From the NCBI GenBank assembly GCA_037305845.1, contig CP147778.1, positions 3,008,001-3,072,000 of the forward strand: a stretch of 64,000 bases of DNA, in the 5' to 3' direction. The stretch is from Candidatus Freyarchaeum deiterrae (GTDB lineage: Archaea; Asgardarchaeota; Jordiarchaeia; Jordiarchaeales; Jordiarchaeaceae). The first letter of the stretch is position 1; each line of letters starts with the position of its first letter. The notes under the pieces are model-generated. The model did not search any database and was not told the DNA's origin. It saw only the letters and a list, made by a program, of their open reading frames with translations. Made by a program: the position numbers and the translations under genes. Positions 1 through 8,467 of this stretch are shown here, piece by piece.

Positions 1-591
1 TAGTGTAATATCCTTTCCAGGTATAGTTTGGTAATGATCAGGTATGCAAGCGCCAGCTGGATATTGGTTACTATCCACGCAGAATGATGAGCTTACATAG
101 AATGTAGCATTCCATATGCTTGTGCAACATACATCTTGTGATGCTTCATTCCATTGGATGCCTATAGTACCTTGTTTTCCTTCCTTCCCTTGTATAACGC
201 ATATGCTTCCGTCGCATGGTACGTAGCCACCATATACTTTAACTGCTACCCAGTATGAAGCTAACGTATCATTGCTTACGCATATTGGGAATAATTTTGG
301 CACATTCATTCCGATAACATTAATCGTACCTTGTTCTGTGTTGATTTTATCAACGCAACCTGATTGGGCTACCGGCACGATTTCATCAATTTTCGGAATG
401 GATGGCATTCCCTTAATTTGCGTTTGGATGCCGCTCTGACAGAGCATATTATAGCCAATCAATTGGGTAGTAACATTTGATTGACTGTATTGACTGTACG
501 CGTAGGATGCCACCACTAAGCCCCCAATCACCAATAACATTGCCACTAAAAAATGGGCTAAACGAAATTGCTTCCCTTTCCATTTTTTCAC
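1..591 (-). CDS. Secreted/surface Cys-rich protein, partial (runs off the window start)
   Basis: Not in the ORF track. Manual translation gives a frame open from GTG at 591 to the window edge: MKKWKGKQFRLAHFLVAMLLVIGGLVVASYAYSQYSQSNVTT... Basic N-terminus plus hydrophobic signal segment, many Cys, N-glycosylation sequons. Start codon uncertain. Confidence 0.75.
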   Translation of the reverse strand, partial: MKKWKGKQFRLAHFLVAMLLVIGGLVVASYAYSQYSQSNVTTQLIGYNMLCQSGIQTQIKGMPSIPKIDEIVPVAQSGCVDKINTEQGTINVIGMNVPKLFPICVSNDTLASYWVAVKVYGGYVPCDGSICVIQGKEGKQGTIGIQWNEASQDVCCTSIWNATFYVSSSFCVDSNQYPAGACIPDHYQTIPGKDITL

Positions 592-836
592 TAGTGACGT
601 TCGAGAGCAATTGTAATCAGTGTTCTTCTCCTTTTCAACCACTCTCGTCTTTCCTCCTTTTTTTATTGTGACAGAGAGTGTAGTTTTTCTGTACAGCCAC
701 TATTCCACAACGTCCTCTATACTAGCCGACCAATGCTACACTAGGCCCTTCACCAGATTTTCGCTAACACGCGCCAGATAGTTACTAGACAACCCACCAG
801 ACTAGCACTAAAAGTCTACACTAACCAAAACTGGAA

Positions 837-868
837 GTTACTGTATCACTTTCTGTTACTGTATCACT
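837..868. promoter_or_regulatory. Perfect 14-bp direct repeat GTTACTGTATCACT x2 (candidate regulator site)
   Basis: Copies at 837-850 and 855-868 in the intergenic region upstream of the minus-strand surface protein gene. Confidence 0.5.
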
Positions 869-1454
869 AGATTATCAATATACCATTAATTGATGTTTCT
901 AGCCCATTATTATTTGGTATTCTGAATAATTCCTATATAAATCTTTTGTTTCTATATAACAGATTTATAAAAAATTAGAGAAAATAGCTAAAAAAAGACA
1001 AATCTCACACATTATTTCAAAAATTCTAAGCAAAAAATCCAATAATTATGAAAAAATTACGACACCCGTCTACCAAAAATCCATAATATTCACGCCCATC
1101 ATGAAAAGGCGCCAGCTCAAGAACAAGCAGATGCATTCTAACAATTATACCGGTACTAACCCTGCACTTAACACATTTTCTGTCAGCCCCCAAACTCCAA
1201 TAAATTTCTGGCAACTCTGCACCACTTAGAAGTATCATAACACCTTTATTCCTTGAAAAGAAGGATCCTCTATTCCAAACATGTGCGGGAATATTGCAGA
1301 TAAAAACTGAAAGAATTATTCAACCTTATTTAAAGGGTTGATACTTCCTGGCCATCACAATCGTAAGATTTCTCGGAATAATTTCAAGCCTTCAATATCC
1401 GTAATCTTTATTAGAGAGTTTGAAAAAAGAATATCAATCTATAATATATATAAG

Positions 1455-1523
1455 ATAGATAATCAATATAACACTGTAATAATATATATACCAAATAAAT
1501 AATTAATATAACACAGGAATAAT
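1455..1523. promoter_or_regulatory. Imperfect 29-bp direct repeat (period 40) upstream of the Ig-RING gene
   Basis: 1455-1483 vs 1495-1523, 4 mismatches, core AATATAACAC. Confidence 0.4.
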
Positions 1524-1706
1524 CATTCCCAACACCGTAGAATACGGGCAGTGGAGAAAGAACTCTAAATAGGTAGCAGAATCTACCTGTAGGGCGTAAA
1601 TATGTAAAAAGGGGAAACAGGGCGTCCGAAACGGGGACCGGGCGCCTTGTTTACCATGAGTAAAATCATAATATCGTATCCTTAGATAAATTAGCGGGTA
1701 ACAAAC

Positions 1707-4700
1707 ATGAAATCTATCGGGAGGAGAAGGCGAGCAGTAAAACTAGTAATTTTAGCTGCTATGCTTCTAATTGCAGCAACCCTAGCAGGTGTTTCAATCC
1801 AAAATCAAAATCAAAACACAAATCCAATTATCAACCAAAACCTATTTTTGTACATGAATACTCCTGCAAATCATCCCATATTTACAAAAGACAATCCGAC
1901 TATCAACTATCCTACGAATAATATTGTGCTTGCTTCTGGAAGCTTCAATGTCACCTGGACCAACACTAGAACAGACATAGACTACTACCTAGTTAGTAAC
2001 GACAGTTACAGTCCGGACAGTGTGGTTAATACGACCACTAGCTATCAAGTCAGCCTATCTGATGGTCTTCACACTGTGAATGTTACAGCCGTCTACCAAG
2101 ACGGTAACTCTAGTTCTAGCATTGTTTCCTTCACTGTGGACACCACTCCCCCCACTGTGACTATCACCTCACCCAGCAATGGTACTCTGTTTAACACCAG
2201 CAGTGTTATGGTGAACTGGACTGGTAGCGACGCCAACTCGGGCATAGCCTACTTTGAGGTCAGAATTGACGAAGGCAGCTGGACCAATGTATCTGCGAGC
2301 CCCAGCTACACTTTCACCAGTGTCACAAACGGTACTCACACCGTTGATGTCGTAGCCTTCGATTTAGCGGGTAACAATGCCACCGCTTCTGTTTCCTTTA
2401 ACGTGGACACCATTCCTCCCACGGTGACTATCACTTCACCCACCATGGGCGTGCTGCTTAACACCAGCAGTGTTACTGTGAACTGGACCGGCAGCGACGA
2501 TACGGGTATAAGCTACTACGAGGTCAGAAATGACTCCAGCTCTTGGATCAACATGGGGACGAGTACCAGCTACACATTCACCAGTTTGTCCGACGGTTCT
2601 CACACTGTTTATGTTATGGCTTTTGACTTGGCTGGTAACAACGCCACCACGTCTGTTTCCTTCACTGTGGACACCACTCCGCCTACAGTAACCATAACCT
2701 CACCCAGCAATAATGCTATGCTTAACACCAGTAGTGTTACGGTGAACTGGACGGGTAGCGACGCCACCTCGGGCATAAGCTACTTTGAGGTCAGAATTGA
2801 CGGCGGTACTTGGCTCAATGCATCTGCGAGTCTCAGTCACACTTTCACCGGTGTCTCAAACGGTTCTCACACCGTGTATGTTATGGCTTTTGACTTGGCT
2901 GGTAATAACGTCACTGCTTCTGTTCCCTTCAACGTGGACACCACTCCACCCACGGTGGCTATCACCTCACCCTCCTTGGGAGCTGTACTTCTCACCAATG
3001 TTGTGTTTAACTGGACCGGTAGCGACGACACCGGCATAGCCTACTTTGAGGTCAGAATTGACGGCGGTACTTGGCTCAATGTATCCACGAGCCTCAGCTA
3101 CACTTTCACCGGTGTCTTGAACGGTTCTCATACTGTTTATGTTATGGCTTTTGACTTGGCTGGTAATAACATCACTGCTTCTGTTCCCTTTAACGTGGAC
3201 ACCATTCCTCCCACTGTGACTATCACCTCACCCACCAATGGTACCCTGTTTAACACCGGCAGTGTTACAGAAAACTGGACGGGCAGCGACAACACCGGCA
3301 TAGCCTACTTTGAGGTCAGAAATGACGGCGGTAGCTGGATCAATGTATCTAAGAGTCTCAGCTACGCGTTTACCGGTCTCTCGAACGGTTCTCACTCCGT
3401 GGATGTCATAGCCTTCGACCTGGCTGGTAACAACGCCACCGCCTCTGTTCCCTTCACTGTGGACACCACTTTGCCTACAGTGACTATCACTTCACCCACC
3501 AATGGTGCGCTGTTTAATACTAGCAGTGTTACAGTAAACTGGACTGGTTACGCCTACTCAGGCATAAACTACTACGAGGTTAAGCTTGACGGCGGTACTT
3601 TTGGCAGTGTTGGAACAAATACCAGCTACACGTTCACCAGTCTTTCAGATGGGTCTCACACCGTTTATGTTAGGGCTTGGAGCCTGGTGGGTAACAATGC
3701 CACTGCATCTGTTTCATTTAACGTGGACACCATTCCTCCCACAGTGAATATTGCCTCACCCACCAATGGTGCGCTGTTTAATACTGGCAGTGTTACAGTG
3801 AACTGGACGGGCAGCGACGCCAACTCGGGCATAGCCTACTTTGAGGTCAGAATTGATGGCGGTAGCTGGATCAATGTATCCACGAGCCTCAGCCACACTT
3901 TCACCGGTCTCTCAACCGGTACTCACTCCGTGGATGTCATAGCCTTCGACCTGGCGGGTAACAATGCCACCGCTTCTGTTTTCTTCACTGTGGACACCAT
4001 TCCTCCCATAGTGACTATCACTTCACCCACCAATGGTACGCTGTTTAATACTAGCAGTGTTACAGTAAACTGGATAGGTAGCGACGGCAACGGCACTGGT
4101 ATAGCCTACTTTGAGGTCAGAATTGACGGCGGTATCTGGATCAATGTAGCTAAGGGTATGAGCTACCCGTTCACCGGTCTCTTAACCGGTTCTCACCCCG
4201 TGGATGTCATAGCCTTCGACCTGGCTGGTAACAACGCCACCGCCTCTGTTTCCTTCAACGTGGACACCACTCCACCCACGGTGACCATAACCACTCCGTA
4301 TAACGATACCTCGATTAATGTGGGGACTATCATAATTAGGGGTGTATATAACGGTACTGGTAGCAATATTCAGAAGATTGATTGTAACGACTCCCGTTTT
4401 ACTCTTCAGACCGCTCCTCCGTTTGGCGTTACTGGAACTTTTGTTTTTATTAATAAAACTAACCCTATTTATAGCGGTAGTTTTGGGTTGAGAGTTACTG
4501 TTTTGGATGATGCGGGTTTTACTACGTTTGTAGATAGGTGCGTAATAGTAAACCAGAGTGGAATTATCGGCTCTAATATTTCGGATTTGGGTATAGGTAA
4601 TAATTATATCGATGCTGTTTCCGTTGCAGGCGTGGAGCTTTGGTTGAATGTTAATGCTCCCGTAAGGGTTTACATTACTTGCACCGCCGCAAATCTGGGT

Positions 4701-5444
4701 GGTAGTGCTCCGACCGGATTCGGACTTCTCGGAAGGTTTTGGTCTATTTCGGTGAACGACACCTCTGCTATTCAAAGTGTAACTATTGGGGCAATATACT
4801 CGGATGAGAACGTTACAAAAGCTGGAATTGTAGCAGTCTCTGGACTAGGATACTGGAACGATACTAGCGGTATGTGGGAAGAAATTCCAAGTACTCTGGA
4901 TCCACCGAACAATATTGTAAAAGCGACTATCGATCATTTGTCTAGCTTCACTATCCTTGGAACTCTACCGTCTTCGGGAACTCCAACTTCGCCTTATCTT
5001 CCATTATTGTTACTGTCCCAGTCTTTAACAAGTGGGGTTAATCCTCTAGCTTATTTAGTTCTGGCTTTGGTTATGGTTTTACTTGTTTCTGTCGTAGTGG
5101 TAGCATTTAAAGGAAGTTTAAGGGGAAAAGCTGTTGAGCCAAAGGCTCCATTAACTCTCGTGAGGTCTGATGCTTCCAAGAAGGCAGGATGTTTCTACTG
5201 CGGCTCTGAGATTCCTGAAGACGCTGAGATCTGTCCTTACTGTGGCGAGATTAGAGCGAGGTGCTCGGTGTGTAATAGATACCTCATTGTGGGAGACCCG
5301 TTTGCTGAGTGCCCCTACTGCGGTGCCCTTAGTCACAAAGAACACCTACTACAATGGATTGGTTCGAAAGGATACTGTCCAAAATGCAAGGAGAAATTGT
5401 TTACAAGCCACATAAAACTAAAAGACTACTTTGAGCCTCGATAA
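1707..5444 (+). CDS. Single-pass surface protein: signal peptide, about 10 Ig-like repeats, GPS/ZU5-like HLS domain, TM helix, cytoplasmic Zn-ribbon + RING-like domain
   Basis: N-terminal signal/anchor; about 88-aa PPTVTITSP...FxVDT repeats; ATIDHLSSFTILG (H1077); TM LAYLVLALVMVLLVSVVVVAF; CFYC..CPYC, then C-x2-C-x12-C-x2-C-x4-H-x2-H-x10-C-x2-C with a Trp. Confidence 0.9.
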   Translation: MKSIGRRRRAVKLVILAAMLLIAATLAGVSIQNQNQNTNPIINQNLFLYMNTPANHPIFTKDNPTINYPTNNIVLASGSFNVTWTNTRTDIDYYLVSNDSYSPDSVVNTTTSYQVSLSDGLHTVNVTAVYQDGNSSSSIVSFTVDTTPPTVTITSPSNGTLFNTSSVMVNWTGSDANSGIAYFEVRIDEGSWTNVSASPSYTFTSVTNGTHTVDVVAFDLAGNNATASVSFNVDTIPPTVTITSPTMGVLLNTSSVTVNWTGSDDTGISYYEVRNDSSSWINMGTSTSYTFTSLSDGSHTVYVMAFDLAGNNATTSVSFTVDTTPPTVTITSPSNNAMLNTSSVTVNWTGSDATSGISYFEVRIDGGTWLNASASLSHTFTGVSNGSHTVYVMAFDLAGNNVTASVPFNVDTTPPTVAITSPSLGAVLLTNVVFNWTGSDDTGIAYFEVRIDGGTWLNVSTSLSYTFTGVLNGSHTVYVMAFDLAGNNITASVPFNVDTIPPTVTITSPTNGTLFNTGSVTENWTGSDNTGIAYFEVRNDGGSWINVSKSLSYAFTGLSNGSHSVDVIAFDLAGNNATASVPFTVDTTLPTVTITSPTNGALFNTSSVTVNWTGYAYSGINYYEVKLDGGTFGSVGTNTSYTFTSLSDGSHTVYVRAWSLVGNNATASVSFNVDTIPPTVNIASPTNGALFNTGSVTVNWTGSDANSGIAYFEVRIDGGSWINVSTSLSHTFTGLSTGTHSVDVIAFDLAGNNATASVFFTVDTIPPIVTITSPTNGTLFNTSSVTVNWIGSDGNGTGIAYFEVRIDGGIWINVAKGMSYPFTGLLTGSHPVDVIAFDLAGNNATASVSFNVDTTPPTVTITTPYNDTSINVGTIIIRGVYNGTGSNIQKIDCNDSRFTLQTAPPFGVTGTFVFINKTNPIYSGSFGLRVTVLDDAGFTTFVDRCVIVNQSGIIGSNISDLGIGNNYIDAVSVAGVELWLNVNAPVRVYITCTAANLGGSAPTGFGLLGRFWSISVNDTSAIQSVTIGAIYSDENVTKAGIVAVSGLGYWNDTSGMWEEIPSTLDPPNNIVKATIDHLSSFTILGTLPSSGTPTSPYLPLLLLSQSLTSGVNPLAYLVLALVMVLLVSVVVVAFKGSLRGKAVEPKAPLTLVRSDASKKAGCFYCGSEIPEDAEICPYCGEIRARCSVCNRYLIVGDPFAECPYCGALSHKEHLLQWIGSKGYCPKCKEKLFTSHIKLKDYFEPR
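2140..4275 (+). repeat. Eight near-identical intragenic repeats of about 265 bp encoding Ig-like domains
   Basis: Recurrent blocks such as GTGGACACCA, GCCTACTTTGAGGTCAGAATTGA and GGTAACAA at a period of about 265 bp. Confidence 0.9.
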
Positions 5445-5674
5445 CCTACTCCCCCTTGGAAGAAATGAGAGAACTTGGTTATAGTGCGGGAGAGGTAAAG
5501 CCATTCCGTTCTGCTGTAAGCTGATGATCTAACACGGTGGTGAGGCTCGCATAAGGCGAAAGATTTAAACTTCTTCTTCATCATAATAAAATTTATATAT
5601 GTATTTGCCGCAAAAATATGGCATCGGACAATTTACGGAAGAATGAGGGTTAAAATTTTATGAAGGGAGGCTAA

Positions 5675-6133
5675 ATGGTTACATTTGATGAGATTAAAAA
5701 AATGGGGAAAAAATGGGCTGCAGAATATTGCAAAGCACTAAATAACACCCCAGAATATGAAGAAGCGGCAAAGGGATGGGGAGTCGATTTCGAAGGGGCT
5801 ATGTTATTTATAATGACTCCTAGTGGCGAAATAACATTTGATGTAGTTTCCTTCTTGGATTTAAAGGATGGTAAATGTTTAGGCATAAAATTACTTGAAC
5901 CCGGAGAAGCTCCCCCGAGAACGCCTGGATTGACGCTAAAAGCACCGATGTTGACGTGGAAAAAATTAGCCTTTAAGGAGCAAAATCCTGTACAAGCCTT
6001 AATGACGGGAGAGCTTCAACTCGAAGGAGATATGGATCTTGCTATGAAGTATTCCCAGGCTGCTATGCTGCTGGCTGATGTTACAGAAAAAACCGACAGA
6101 AGCTTATTTACCTCATTTGATCTCGGAGAATAG
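5675..6133 (+). CDS. SCP2 sterol/lipid-binding domain protein
   Basis: NPVQALMTGELQLEGDM SCP2-type motif; GGGAGG RBS. Confidence 0.85.
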   Translation: MVTFDEIKKMGKKWAAEYCKALNNTPEYEEAAKGWGVDFEGAMLFIMTPSGEITFDVVSFLDLKDGKCLGIKLLEPGEAPPRTPGLTLKAPMLTWKKLAFKEQNPVQALMTGELQLEGDMDLAMKYSQAAMLLADVTEKTDRSLFTSFDLGE

Positions 6134-6143
6134 AGGGACTAGA

Positions 6144-6890
6144 ATGAGTGAAACTAGACAAATAGATTATTCGATGCCTCGCCAAAATGGGCATTATCCA
6201 CCACCCCCCTATGAATATCCAAATATGAGAGCCATAGTCTGCCTGTTCAAGACGACCCGTGAGGCTAAACGGCGAGTTTTACCCCCAGAATTGGAATCCA
6301 TCGAGTTTCCTTTCGATGCAATCTTCATTGCCGAATATCCCAATTCGACAATCGGACCCTACAATGAGAACTTAATTCTATTATATACCAAATATGAAAA
6401 AACACAGGGACTATTTGTCATGAATATTTACGTAGATGACGATGCTGCATTGACAGCAGGGCGAGAAATTTGGGGGTATCCTAAGAAATTATGTAATATA
6501 AAACTATCTCCGATAAAGGATGATAAAATTACAGGCACATTAGTCAGAAAAGGTAAAACAATTCTTCAAGTTAAAGCAGAATTAACCGATAAGTCACCTG
6601 GTGTAGATCCCAGCTATCTTATCAAAGCATTTCCACTCATTAATCTAAAATTGATTCCAGATGTTGCAGATAATTCGAAACCAGCTCTAAATCAATTAAC
6701 CGCAACGCAATTAGCATGGAATAATATTCGGGTAACAAAAGGACTAAAAGTGAAGTCAATAACCAGTGAATATTCAGACTATGATATCTGCTCAGAAGTC
6801 ATAAATGTCTCCGATACGAGTATTGGAGGTTTCTACGTCGAATGCGATCAAACCCTGCCAAACGGAAGGGTTTTAAAAAACTTAGTATAA
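6144..6890 (+). CDS. Acetoacetate decarboxylase family protein
   Basis: GREIWGYPKK motif with the Schiff-base Lys; GPYNE. ATG at 6144 is preferred over the overlapping upstream start. Confidence 0.85.
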   Translation: MSETRQIDYSMPRQNGHYPPPPYEYPNMRAIVCLFKTTREAKRRVLPPELESIEFPFDAIFIAEYPNSTIGPYNENLILLYTKYEKTQGLFVMNIYVDDDAALTAGREIWGYPKKLCNIKLSPIKDDKITGTLVRKGKTILQVKAELTDKSPGVDPSYLIKAFPLINLKLIPDVADNSKPALNQLTATQLAWNNIRVTKGLKVKSITSEYSDYDICSEVINVSDTSIGGFYVECDQTLPNGRVLKNLV

Positions 6891-6955
6891 TACCCATTAT
6901 TTTTATTATAATTTTTTTACAAAAATTGTTAATGAACTAGTAAGTAGGTATTCAC

Positions 6956-8467
6956 TTGTCTAGAATAATGGAAGCTTTTGATAAAATTGAAGACATTGTG
7001 GGATCTAGATACGTTTCCGATTCAGAACCAGTTTTATATTCTTATTCAAGGAATGCAGATCCCATCCTAAGAGGCAAACCAGATATTGTTGTGAGACCCA
7101 AATCCACAGAAGAAGTTTCACAGATTGTAAAAGTTGCAAACGAAACAAAGACTAAAATAATACCGAGAGGTGGTGGTGCAGATCTAACTGGCGGTGCGAA
7201 ACCCATTGGTGATGGGGGTATAGTAATCGATTTAACGCGAATGAATAAAGTGCTGGATGTTGATCTTGGAGCTAGAATTGTGACGGTAGAATGCGGTATT
7301 TCGTGGTCGGAGTTATGTGATTATCTCCGCAAAATAGAAAATGGTTTATACACCGGCAGCACCGGTCCAGCAAGTGGATTTGGCGCAACAATAGGTGGAG
7401 GTTTATCGAATCATAGTGTTGGTGGCGGCGGTGCGGCGATGTATGGAGCCGTTACAGAGCAGTGCGTGGGTCTTGAAGTTGTTCTACCGACCGGCAAGGT
7501 CATCAATACTGGAGCCAAAGCTAACTCTTTCATGAATCGGGCTTTTTCTCGACTGGGCTTAGGACCAGATTATACGGGACTCTTCCTAGGTGATGTCGGA
7601 ATTCATGGCATTAAAACCAAAGCCTCTCTCAAATTATATCCTCTCCCCGAATATGCCGCGTTTAATACTTTCGATATCGAAACTACAAAAATGAAGCCCT
7701 CAGTTGAAAGAGCTACGGAAGTCATGTTAAAATGGCAACATAAGAACATTAAAATTCACGATTTCTATTTTTACACAGAAACTTATGCCCGCCTTTTAAA
7801 GATGTTTCAAGTTAAAAAAAGCTGGACTACCGCAGATATTAAGGGATCAGTTCTCTTTTATGTAACTGTAGCTGATTCCACGAGAGAGCTAGAAGAAGAT
7901 GTTGAAAAATTAGATAAAATTGCTAAGGAAGCTGAATTGCGAAAATTGGGACCCAGAGTTGAGGATGGAAACATAGCTAAATGGTTCTATGAGGAAGATG
8001 GACGATGGCAGTGGGCAGATATTTACTTCGGGATGCTCGGCCCGGGATCTGGGTCTTTGGGTACTTGTTTAAAAGCGCCCACAGATTTATTGCCCAAATA
8101 TGTTGATTTATATCAACGCTGGGCAACAGCAAATACAAAAGTACTTTCAGAAGTAGGAGGTGGGTCGGCGGATTTCATTGTTTTTGGAGTATACCCTAAT
8201 TATATCGATGTCACAGGCGGAATCTCAATAAAGCCGAGACCTCAGGATTATGAGAAAATTTATCAAATGTGGAAATCATTATTAATTGCTCAGATTAAGG
8301 AACTCGGTGCCATGCATTATTGGATGGGCGAAATTATAGGACATAGCCTCGTTGAATCAGGTGCACTGACACCAGAATATTTGGAATTCATGATAAATAT
8401 CAAAAAGGCCTTAGACCCAAATAAAATCATGAGCCCGGATAAGTTCTATCTCTCAAAACAATATTAA
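6956..8467 (+). CDS. FAD-binding oxidoreductase (GlcD/D-lactate dehydrogenase/alkyl-DHAP synthase-like, VAO family)
   Basis: PDIVVRP...EEV, IIPRGGG, ATIGGG, GLEVVLPTG, KKALDPNKIMSP. Confidence 0.9.
   Translation: MSRIMEAFDKIEDIVGSRYVSDSEPVLYSYSRNADPILRGKPDIVVRPKSTEEVSQIVKVANETKTKIIPRGGGADLTGGAKPIGDGGIVIDLTRMNKVLDVDLGARIVTVECGISWSELCDYLRKIENGLYTGSTGPASGFGATIGGGLSNHSVGGGGAAMYGAVTEQCVGLEVVLPTGKVINTGAKANSFMNRAFSRLGLGPDYTGLFLGDVGIHGIKTKASLKLYPLPEYAAFNTFDIETTKMKPSVERATEVMLKWQHKNIKIHDFYFYTETYARLLKMFQVKKSWTTADIKGSVLFYVTVADSTRELEEDVEKLDKIAKEAELRKLGPRVEDGNIAKWFYEEDGRWQWADIYFGMLGPGSGSLGTCLKAPTDLLPKYVDLYQRWATANTKVLSEVGGGSADFIVFGVYPNYIDVTGGISIKPRPQDYEKIYQMWKSLLIAQIKELGAMHYWMGEIIGHSLVESGALTPEYLEFMINIKKALDPNKIMSPDKFYLSKQY

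Follow-up and report, generated by a model that had tools for sequence, protein, structure and literature searches.

A MAIN autoproteolysis-type domain joined through one transmembrane helix to a zinc ribbon and RING-H2-like tail: a candidate self-cleaving surface receptor in an Asgard archaeon

In a preprint of May 2026, Brogan and Rudner reported that domains resembling GAIN-B occur across bacteria and archaea, and gave them the name MAIN, for Microbial Autoproteolysis INducing (bioRxiv 10.64898/2026.05.12.724683); the DPAM tables of that work label the same domains "ZU5". Cleavage was shown to occur between X and S of an H-X-S motif in Bacillus subtilis YfkN and several other Bacillota proteins, S-to-A substitution blocks it, the cleaved fragments remain together, and nearly all of the bacterial MAIN domains assayed were cleaved (Brogan and Rudner, 2026). 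No signalling mechanism was tied to the membrane-side fragment, the proteins described being stated not to signal across the membrane, and whether MAIN tethered peptides affect cell physiology was posed as a question (Brogan and Rudner, 2026). Here, we analyzed a 64,000-nucleotide (nt) stretch of the genome of the Asgard archaeon Candidatus Freyarchaeum deiterrae (assembly GCA_037305845.1, contig CP147778.1, positions 3,008,001 to 3,072,000), referred to as the window, and in particular one of its genes, P0001, in whose product a MAIN domain is followed by a single transmembrane (TM) helix, a zinc ribbon and a RING-H2-like domain (Table 1). P0001 resembles YfkN and other MAIN proteins in having a signal peptide, a large adhesive ectodomain, a GAIN-B-like sandwich with H-X-S/T in its last turn, and placement of that domain directly before the cell-surface anchor. 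In contrast, the MAIN proteins of the preprint terminate in a sortase signal, an SLH domain or a wall-binding domain. The terms RING, zinc, Asgard and ubiquitin are absent from the text of the preprint, no Asgard protein is entered in its tables, and DZR and MAIN co-occur in 3 of the 15,000 proteins tabulated (Brogan and Rudner, 2026). The MAIN domain is already known, then, and the MAIN-TM-zinc ribbon-RING architecture is not described in the preprint; P0001 is a new combination of known modules, in which an Asgard archaeon has a MAIN domain connected to a RING.

P0001 is a type I membrane protein in which a leader, an array of immunoglobulin (Ig)-like repeats, an Ig-like module of a second type, the MAIN/GAIN-B-like domain, a stalk, the TM helix, the zinc ribbon and the RING follow one another. 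The Ig-like repeats span about 800 amino acids (aa); Pfam finds Big_7 in nine stretches (expectation value, E, 3.7e-62), and Tandem Repeats Finder reports a 264-nt period over nt 2123-4292 (8.2 copies, 77% matches). The second-type module is present in many copies in the homologue P0002. All of the 49 N-x-S/T sequons lie before aa 1052, and a hydropathy scan shows one TM helix, which begins 23 aa after the end of the MAIN domain and 34 aa after H1077-L1078-S1079. With the sequons all outside and the Cys-rich zinc sites all inside, an outside-to-inside topology fits the protein. The initial annotation, made from the letters of the window, had described a signal peptide followed by about ten sequon-rich Ig-like repeats, an H-L-S motif just before the membrane, and a CxxC..CxxC zinc site followed by a C4H2C2 RING pattern with a Trp. 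Each of these features was recovered, as a leader with nine Big_7 stretches and one further module, as the motif at the very position given, and as a zinc ribbon and RING with W1217 four residues after H1213. NCBIfam returned only repeat-type matches on P0001, and Pfam searches with aa 1-100 and aa 880-1100 returned nothing even at E 10.

The juxtamembrane domain was modeled with AlphaFold2 (AF2) over aa 945-1100 at a predicted local distance difference test (pLDDT) score of 93.7. In the model, the HLS motif (model residues 133-135) occupies the turn between the last two strands (126-131 and 136-142). The top Foldseek matches are the GAIN domains of BAI3, BAI2 and CD97 and the ZU5 domain of ankyrin, with 4dlo_A matched at E 6.8e-5 and a TM score of 0.58. 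VIA gave Z scores of 10.7, 9.8 and 9.4 against the GAIN domains of CD97, BAI3 and BAI2, respectively, over 131-137 aa, tied with 10.2 for ankyrin ZU5 and 9.2 for the FIIND of NLRP1. As modeled, the juxtamembrane domain of P0001 is of the GAIN-B/ZU5 type, its HLS occupying the place at which a GPS is cleaved, in line with the fold that the initial annotation had anticipated.

The motif is conserved well beyond this gene. HL[ST]xF is invariant in six domains, four in this genome and two in metagenomic homologues. When 1.84 billion representatives were searched with a profile of these domains, 4759 proteins matched at E <= 1e-3, 363 of them at E <= 1e-10, with the family consensus W..LPSTVD..NN.VTA...H[LF][ST].[FYW]A. 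Among 237 domain instances of this wider family, H-[LF]-[ST] is intact in 201; His is found in 85%, L/F in 93%, S/T in 98%, and an aromatic residue two positions further on in 97%. Because HL[ST]xF is invariant in the six domains and H-[LF]-[ST] is intact in 201 of the 237, the motif is not a chance match. Two family members, P0033 and P0071, exceed the Pfam cut-off for GPS, and an 85-sequence profile searched against Protein Data Bank (PDB) sequences found the GPS of human ADGRF1 at E 0.009, aligning HLS to HLT. By analogy with the bacterial members, P0001 is quite probably cut at L1078/S1079.

On the cytoplasmic side, the excised tail matches DZR at 31.3 bits (cut-off 27.3) in its zinc ribbon, and the eight zinc ligands of the RING, with cross-brace spacing, are invariant in 13 paralogues and homologues; in P0001 the two predicted zinc sites would be C1186/C1189/H1210/H1213 and C1202/C1205/C1224/C1227. 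When a profile of 13 tail sequences (A3) was searched against PDB sequences, it matched RING-H2 ligases, led by RNF126 (E 7.6e-6) and followed by RNF4, RNF24, EL5, Arkadia, RNF165, RLIM, Hrd1, gp78 and ZNRF3. The ligands align one for one with those of RNF126 and RNF24, but a CPxC knuckle replaces C-x-H. The AF2 model of the tail (pLDDT 76.9; 85-91 in the RING core) superposes on U-box/RING domains with a root-mean-square deviation (rmsd) of 1.3-1.8 Å over 52-59 residues, including the Prp19 U-box (Z 9.7, rmsd 1.5 Å over 58 aa), Rad18 and RNF24 (1.7-1.8 Å); RNF4, in its complex with ubiquitin-charged E2 (ubiquitin-conjugating enzyme), scored Z 7.8 and RNF165 Z 7.1. Positions that contact E2 in such domains are V1188 (C1+2), W1217 (helix), P1225 (after C7) and K1228 (the linchpin after C8) in P0001, and across A3 they are hydrophobic in 13 of 13 sequences, Trp in 10 of 13 (Tyr in 2), Pro in 13 of 13 and Lys/Arg in 9 of 13. 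The model makes the tail a RING-H2-like cross-brace domain, as had been proposed from its cysteine spacing, and its sequence makes it moderately likely that the tail is an E3 (ubiquitin ligase). A complex prediction of the E2 of the first ubiquitin operon with the tail, run without controls, gave an ipSAE of 0.00 and weighs neither way.

Over the whole tail, zinc ribbon and RING together, the IFT-A subunit WDR19/IFT144 aligns with Z 9.7 over 91 aa at 22-25% identity (Foldseek 6.3e-6, sequence E 3.6e-4), and the zinc modules of GATOR2 (WDR24, WDR59 and MIOS) and SEA also align over its full length by structure and profile. The PDB entries for these coat-like matches, which fall within window:5190-5390, are 8fh3_C, 8bbg_A and 7uhy. 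It is conceivable that an evolutionary relationship links the zinc ribbon-RING module to the zinc modules that end eukaryotic coat-like proteins such as those of IFT-A and GATOR2.

The genome also provides the machinery with which such a tail would work. It holds two operons for ubiquitin, E2 and E1 (ubiquitin-activating enzyme), one of them headed by an 86-aa RING that is a paralogue of the P0001 RING (E 1.2e-10; 4e-25 with a profile) and whose gene overlaps the start of the ubiquitin gene. Three JAB peptidases, one EAP30 protein (ESCRT-II) and two Snf7 proteins are also encoded, so that the ubiquitin system expected of an Asgard host is indeed represented by ubiquitin, E1, E2, JAB and ESCRT genes. 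A RING-ubiquitin-E2-E1 operon of like layout occurs in Caldiarchaeum, where the RING is reportedly an active E3. Within the RING-headed operon, the first helix of the E2 lies in frame upstream of the first ATG, in a stretch with no ATG, GTG or TTG; the annotated 135-aa E2 is probably short at its N-terminus, or else an unusual start is used. A 598-aa neighbour of this operon shows a weak mu-homology (Adap_comp_sub) match. The EAP30 gene (G000:C1:1893554-1895682) adjoins a gene whose 266-aa product shows a partial match of UQ_con/UEV-like type. This locus probably corresponds to the ESCRT-I/II cluster that has been described in Asgards.

The pairing of MAIN and RING is not confined to P0001. 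Three further large proteins of the genome share the block of juxtamembrane domain, stalk, TM helix, zinc ribbon and RING, on ectodomains that are unrelated and consist of beta-helix repeats or DUF2341-like domains. Five MAIN-like domains are found in the genome, and the TM-zinc ribbon-RING tail follows each of those that bear HL[ST] (4/4). The fifth, in a 951-aa protein encoded on the minus strand (G000:C1:3308764-3311616), has its His replaced (SGFS) and is followed by no TM helix or RING; it is likely, from its sequence, to be a non-cleaving relative. RINGs of the tail type occur in 12 intact genes and two pseudogenes: four on the MAIN receptors, one on a beta-helix receptor without MAIN, and several on small multi-pass or soluble proteins. 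Three such genes lie within 7 kb (G000:C1:3413076-3419659) and encode products of 219 aa, in which the Trp is lost, of 666 aa (beta-helix-TM-SHOCT-like-RING) and of 261 aa (multi-pass). Decayed copies with in-frame stops are located at G000:C1:312779-313018 and G000:C1:125136-125318.

Beyond this genome, the closest named homologues come from metagenome-assembled genomes (MAGs) labelled Lokiarchaeia, Freyarchaeota, Jordarchaeales and Jordarchaeaceae. A search for the same architecture had been suggested at the outset; among the sequences covered, which included 301 genomes of the phylum, the MAIN-RING fusion turned up only in one other genome of this genus and in Lokiarchaeia- and Freyarchaeota-labelled MAGs. 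In P0108 (from a Hodarchaeota MAG), P0041, P0038 and P0017, all from other Asgard-type MAGs, the MAIN domain, TM helix and linker are followed by a single C-x2-C...C-x2-C zinc ribbon and no RING, and from these sequences the zinc ribbon may be the more ancient of the cytoplasmic partners that MAIN anchors have. When the 96-aa tail by itself was the query, a word-indexed homologue search returned no candidates of 52-168 aa, a result that reflects a limit of the method, as genome scans found many tails.

Taken together, these observations lead us to propose, tentatively and with chances a little short of even, that P0001 is a surface adhesion-type protein with a self-cleaving MAIN domain, a stalk shed under load and a stub whose RING ubiquitylates. 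The proposal draws on observed domain identities, motif conservation, topology, the fusion pattern and the ubiquitin machinery, and, for cleavage, on the bacterial relatives; we infer from these that P0001 is cleaved, that its tail has E3 activity and that this activity depends on shedding. In this scheme, a glycosylated Ig-repeat stalk would be displayed outside the cell, and the MAIN domain would most likely cut its own chain at L1078/S1079 by an N-O acyl shift with His as base and Ser as nucleophile, as in GAIN and MAIN domains. The last strand (SSFTILG...) would still be hydrogen-bonded in the sandwich after the cut, keeping the fragments together until they are pulled apart. The N-terminal fragment would then be shed when the bound stalk comes under mechanical load, leaving a stub that comprises the exposed strand, the conserved stalk, one TM helix, the zinc ribbon and the RING. 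The RING might recruit charged E2 from the genome's own ubiquitin system and attach ubiquitin to its own stub or to membrane proteins close by; such marks could serve as a signal or lead to removal of the spent stub by ESCRT or the proteasome. Whether the RING behaves differently once the Ig stalk is lost, owing to the exposed tethered strand and conserved stalk, to clustering or to intramembrane cleavage of the SEAL/RsgI kind, is the more doubtful part of the scheme, although it is conceivable. A still bolder form, in which P0001 would be the first cis-signalling member of the MAIN family and force-driven loss of the Ig stalk would bare the tethered strand and activate the RING E3, whether clustering or intramembrane cleavage and release brings this about, we regard as unlikely. 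Were it true, an Asgard archaeon would convert mechanical contact at its surface straight into ubiquitin marks, and both adhesion-receptor logic and receptor-linked ubiquitylation would predate eukaryotes.

Several observations weigh against this proposal, and they bear at the same time on other explanations of the locus. Several eukaryotic GAIN and most ZU5 domains do not cleave, some of them in spite of good motifs, and P0001 itself has no Pfam match to GPS or ZU5. One could imagine that HLS is kept for the folding of the last hairpin and that the chain stays intact, making P0001 a fixed adhesin with a cytoplasmic RING; the His-less fifth MAIN-like domain of the genome is consistent with such a structural stalk, as is the fact that self-cleavage is established for bacterial MAIN domains and for no archaeal one (Brogan and Rudner, 2026). 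Nevertheless, an uncleaved stalk appears quite improbable, given that the H, L/F and S/T of the motif are conserved far above the surrounding strand residues and that the bacterial domains assayed were nearly all cleaved. Other adverse points concern the tail. On the excised tail, the full-length zf-RING_2 match reaches 21.2 bits, under its cut-off of 27.3, and Prok-RING_1 reaches 23.5 bits against a cut-off of 29.1, and the structures that match the tail best from end to end are zinc modules of IFT-A and GATOR2, whose roles are largely structural. These sub-threshold scores, the restriction of whole-tail matches to IFT-A WDR19 and the GATOR2/SEA zinc modules, and the existence of other Asgard MAIN proteins with a zinc ribbon alone after the TM helix would all suit a non-catalytic zinc scaffold, which clusters the protein or attaches it to a cytoplasmic partner and anchors the receptor so that force acts on MAIN, with no transfer of ubiquitin. 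We consider such a scaffold improbable in view of the conserved E2-contact and linchpin positions (hydrophobic after C1, Trp after ligand 6, Pro after C7, mostly Lys/Arg after C8), of the best sequence matches, which are to the active E3s RNF126, RNF4, RNF24, EL5 and Arkadia, and of the RING paralogue that shares an operon with ubiquitin, E2 and E1. The activity said to belong to the Caldiarchaeum RING, from an operon of the same type, also argues against it.

The remaining adverse points concern the coupling of the two modules. The tail occurs on at least eight other intact genes of this genome without MAIN. When 301 genomes of the phylum were scanned with MAIN plus tail (aa 953-1245) as the query, 223 matched, nearly all of the matches listed falling on the tail part, and the few open reading frames inspected were mostly of the form signal/TM-ectodomain-TM-tail. 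Conversely, a sister family and Jordarchaeales MAGs have MAIN followed by a plain TM anchor and an RRRR stop, with no RING. The presence of the tail without MAIN on many proteins and of MAIN without RING in sister lineages indicates that the two modules can work independently. Moreover, MAIN-part and tail identities correlate weakly among the fused proteins (rho 0.25, p 0.07), and we do not claim that the two were inherited as one block; with the two decayed copies of the zinc ribbon-RING, this weak correlation indicates active shuffling of the module, and the sequences suggest that tails were exchanged between paralogues while the MAIN-tail pairing was kept. All of this would agree with a MAIN domain that serves only as a releasable tether, letting the cell shed its adhesin under shear as Brogan and Rudner propose for bacteria, and with a tail that is independent of the state of MAIN and acts as a general Asgard membrane-protein module, whether a constitutive membrane E3 or a sorting tag; the preprint likewise assigns no signalling role to MAIN stubs (Brogan and Rudner, 2026). 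We think it unlikely that release is the whole function, since every MAIN gene of the genome with the catalytic motif has the tail, the pairing persists across paralogues despite unrelated ectodomains and apparent tail exchange, and conservation of the stalk and of the first part of the TM helix exceeds what a plain anchor would call for.

The coordinates of the features are collected in Table 1. Over nt 4300-5561, the DNA has 0 differences from contigs of an independent 2022 freshwater-sediment study, which indicates that the P0001 locus is not an assembly artefact; the runs in which this DNA occurs are wetland metagenomes, and the source genome is closed (3,576,204 bp). One 180-nt metatranscriptome contig covers nt 4967-5146 with two differences, which is too little to claim expression, and the lack of cover over the rest of the gene carries no weight. 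A PGF-CTERM/archaeosortase-type sorting signal was considered for the stalk and TM helix and rejected, since a folded cytoplasmic domain of 110 aa follows the helix. The neighbouring genes (SCP2, acetoacetate decarboxylase, FAD oxidase, CCG/Fe-S, transglutaminase-like and M20 peptidase) show no functional link to the receptor. Upstream of the gene, about 1 kb (window:643-1706; GC content 0.37) contains no open reading frame of more than 70 aa, an unusually long intergenic stretch for this window, and Rfam finds no RNA family in window 1-8000. Within the Ig-repeat array, window:2001-4000 has a GC content of 0.505, relative to about 0.40 around it, which probably reflects the codon composition of the Thr/Ser/Gly/Pro-rich repeats and not a foreign origin.

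Table 1. Features of P0001 and the RING-headed ubiquitin operon of the same genome (window positions unless another coordinate system is given).
Feature	Position	Strand	Details and basis
Whole gene, P0001	1707..5444	+	Single open frame, 1245 aa
Signal peptide / N-terminal hydrophobic leader	1707..1793	+	~aa 1-29: RRRR, then hydrophobic run; read by eye from sequence
Ig-like array, ~9-10 Big_7 repeats, sequon-rich	1884..4265	+	Pfam, Tandem Repeats Finder, sequon count
One Ig-like module, second type	4266..4556	+	aa 854-950; comparison with P0002 and P0003
MAIN / GAIN-B-like autoproteolysis-type beta-sandwich (as modeled)	4563..4973	+	aa 953-1089, 137 aa; AF2 model, Foldseek, VIA
H1077-L1078-S1079, predicted cut L1078/S1079	4935..4943	+	Model turn, GPS alignment, conservation
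Conserved stalk, MAIN domain to membrane	4974..5042	+	Alignment; Y1097, S1109, N1112 invariant; short hydrophobic LPLLLL
Transmembrane helix, basic residues after	5043..5108	+	~aa 1113-1134; hydropathy scan and sequence
Cytoplasmic zinc ribbon	5190..5243	+	C1162-x2-C-x10-C-x2-C1179; Pfam DZR
RING-H2-like domain (C4H2C2)	5262..5390	+	C1186-x2-C-x12-C-x2-C-x4-H-x2-H-x10-C-x2-C1227; profile, fold, Pfam
Operon RING (86 aa)-ubiquitin-E2-E1	G000:C1:1985077-1987570 (L015:4077-6570)	minus	Paralogue of P0001 RING first; ubiquitin L015:6065-6316, E2 with its upstream helix L015:5131-5586, E1 L015:4077-5081

In this Asgard archaeon, every MAIN domain with the catalytic motif is wired through one TM helix to the type of RING that heads its ubiquitin operon, and the gene family is a concrete candidate for the question left open by the MAIN preprint. 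If cleavage and E3 activity prove to be coupled, P0001 would act as a one-component mechanoreceptor in a prokaryote, with ubiquitin as its output, it would offer the first candidate physiological input and membrane-bound E3s for Asgard ubiquitin systems, and the designs of the self-cleaving adhesion receptor and of the transmembrane RING ligase would originate in an archaeal ancestor. The parts are small, soluble, expressible domains, which makes the key claims open to bench work.

The initial annotation had likened P0001 to a combination of adhesion G protein-coupled receptors (GPCRs) and RNF43/ZNRF3, and this comparison holds for the design but not for family membership. Adhesion GPCRs and polycystin-1 share with P0001 the adhesive repeats, an HL/(S,T) site in the last beta-turn by the membrane, and a hydrophobic tethered strand that is left on the membrane fragment. 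However, P0001 has neither the helical GAIN-A part, the region upstream of its MAIN domain being Ig-like and all-beta, nor the GPS disulfides, and it crosses the membrane once instead of 7 or 11 times, with a RING as its output in place of a G protein or channel. The transmembrane RING-H2 E3s, which include RNF43/ZNRF3, the PA-TM-RING proteins RNF13/167, plant ATL, Hrd1 and gp78, have the same succession of ectodomain, TM helix and cytoplasmic RING, and the RINGs of ZNRF3, Hrd1 and gp78 are themselves among the A3 profile matches. P0001 differs from them in its C4H2C2 ligands, its CPxC knuckle for C-x-H, its extra zinc ribbon and its ectodomain module of self-cleaving type, and no PA domain, such as PA-TM-RING proteins and RNF43/ZNRF3 have, is found among its Pfam matches. 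RsgI proteins with a SEAL domain come close to the mechanism proposed here, since they are prokaryotic single-pass proteins in which an extracellular autoproteolytic domain holds the fragments together until force separates them, whereupon a cytoplasmic output is released (PMC10556640; PMC10328401). In contrast, SEAL is SEA-like and not GAIN-like, and the output of RsgI is a sigma factor freed via intramembrane proteolysis rather than a RING (PMC10556640; PMC10328401). The tail, for its part, shares with WDR19/IFT144 of IFT-A and with WDR24, WDR59 and MIOS of GATOR2 a two-part module of zinc ribbon and RING of about 91 residues, at the 22-25% identity given above; those modules cap beta-propeller/solenoid coat-like proteins, where they mainly hold complexes, and are not membrane receptors. 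Finally, the E1/E2/RING cascade of Caldiarchaeum subterraneum employs a small operon RING, the counterpart of which in this genome is the 86-aa paralogue of the P0001 RING, but the Caldiarchaeum RING is soluble and minimal, whereas that of P0001 forms the tail of a 1245-aa receptor.

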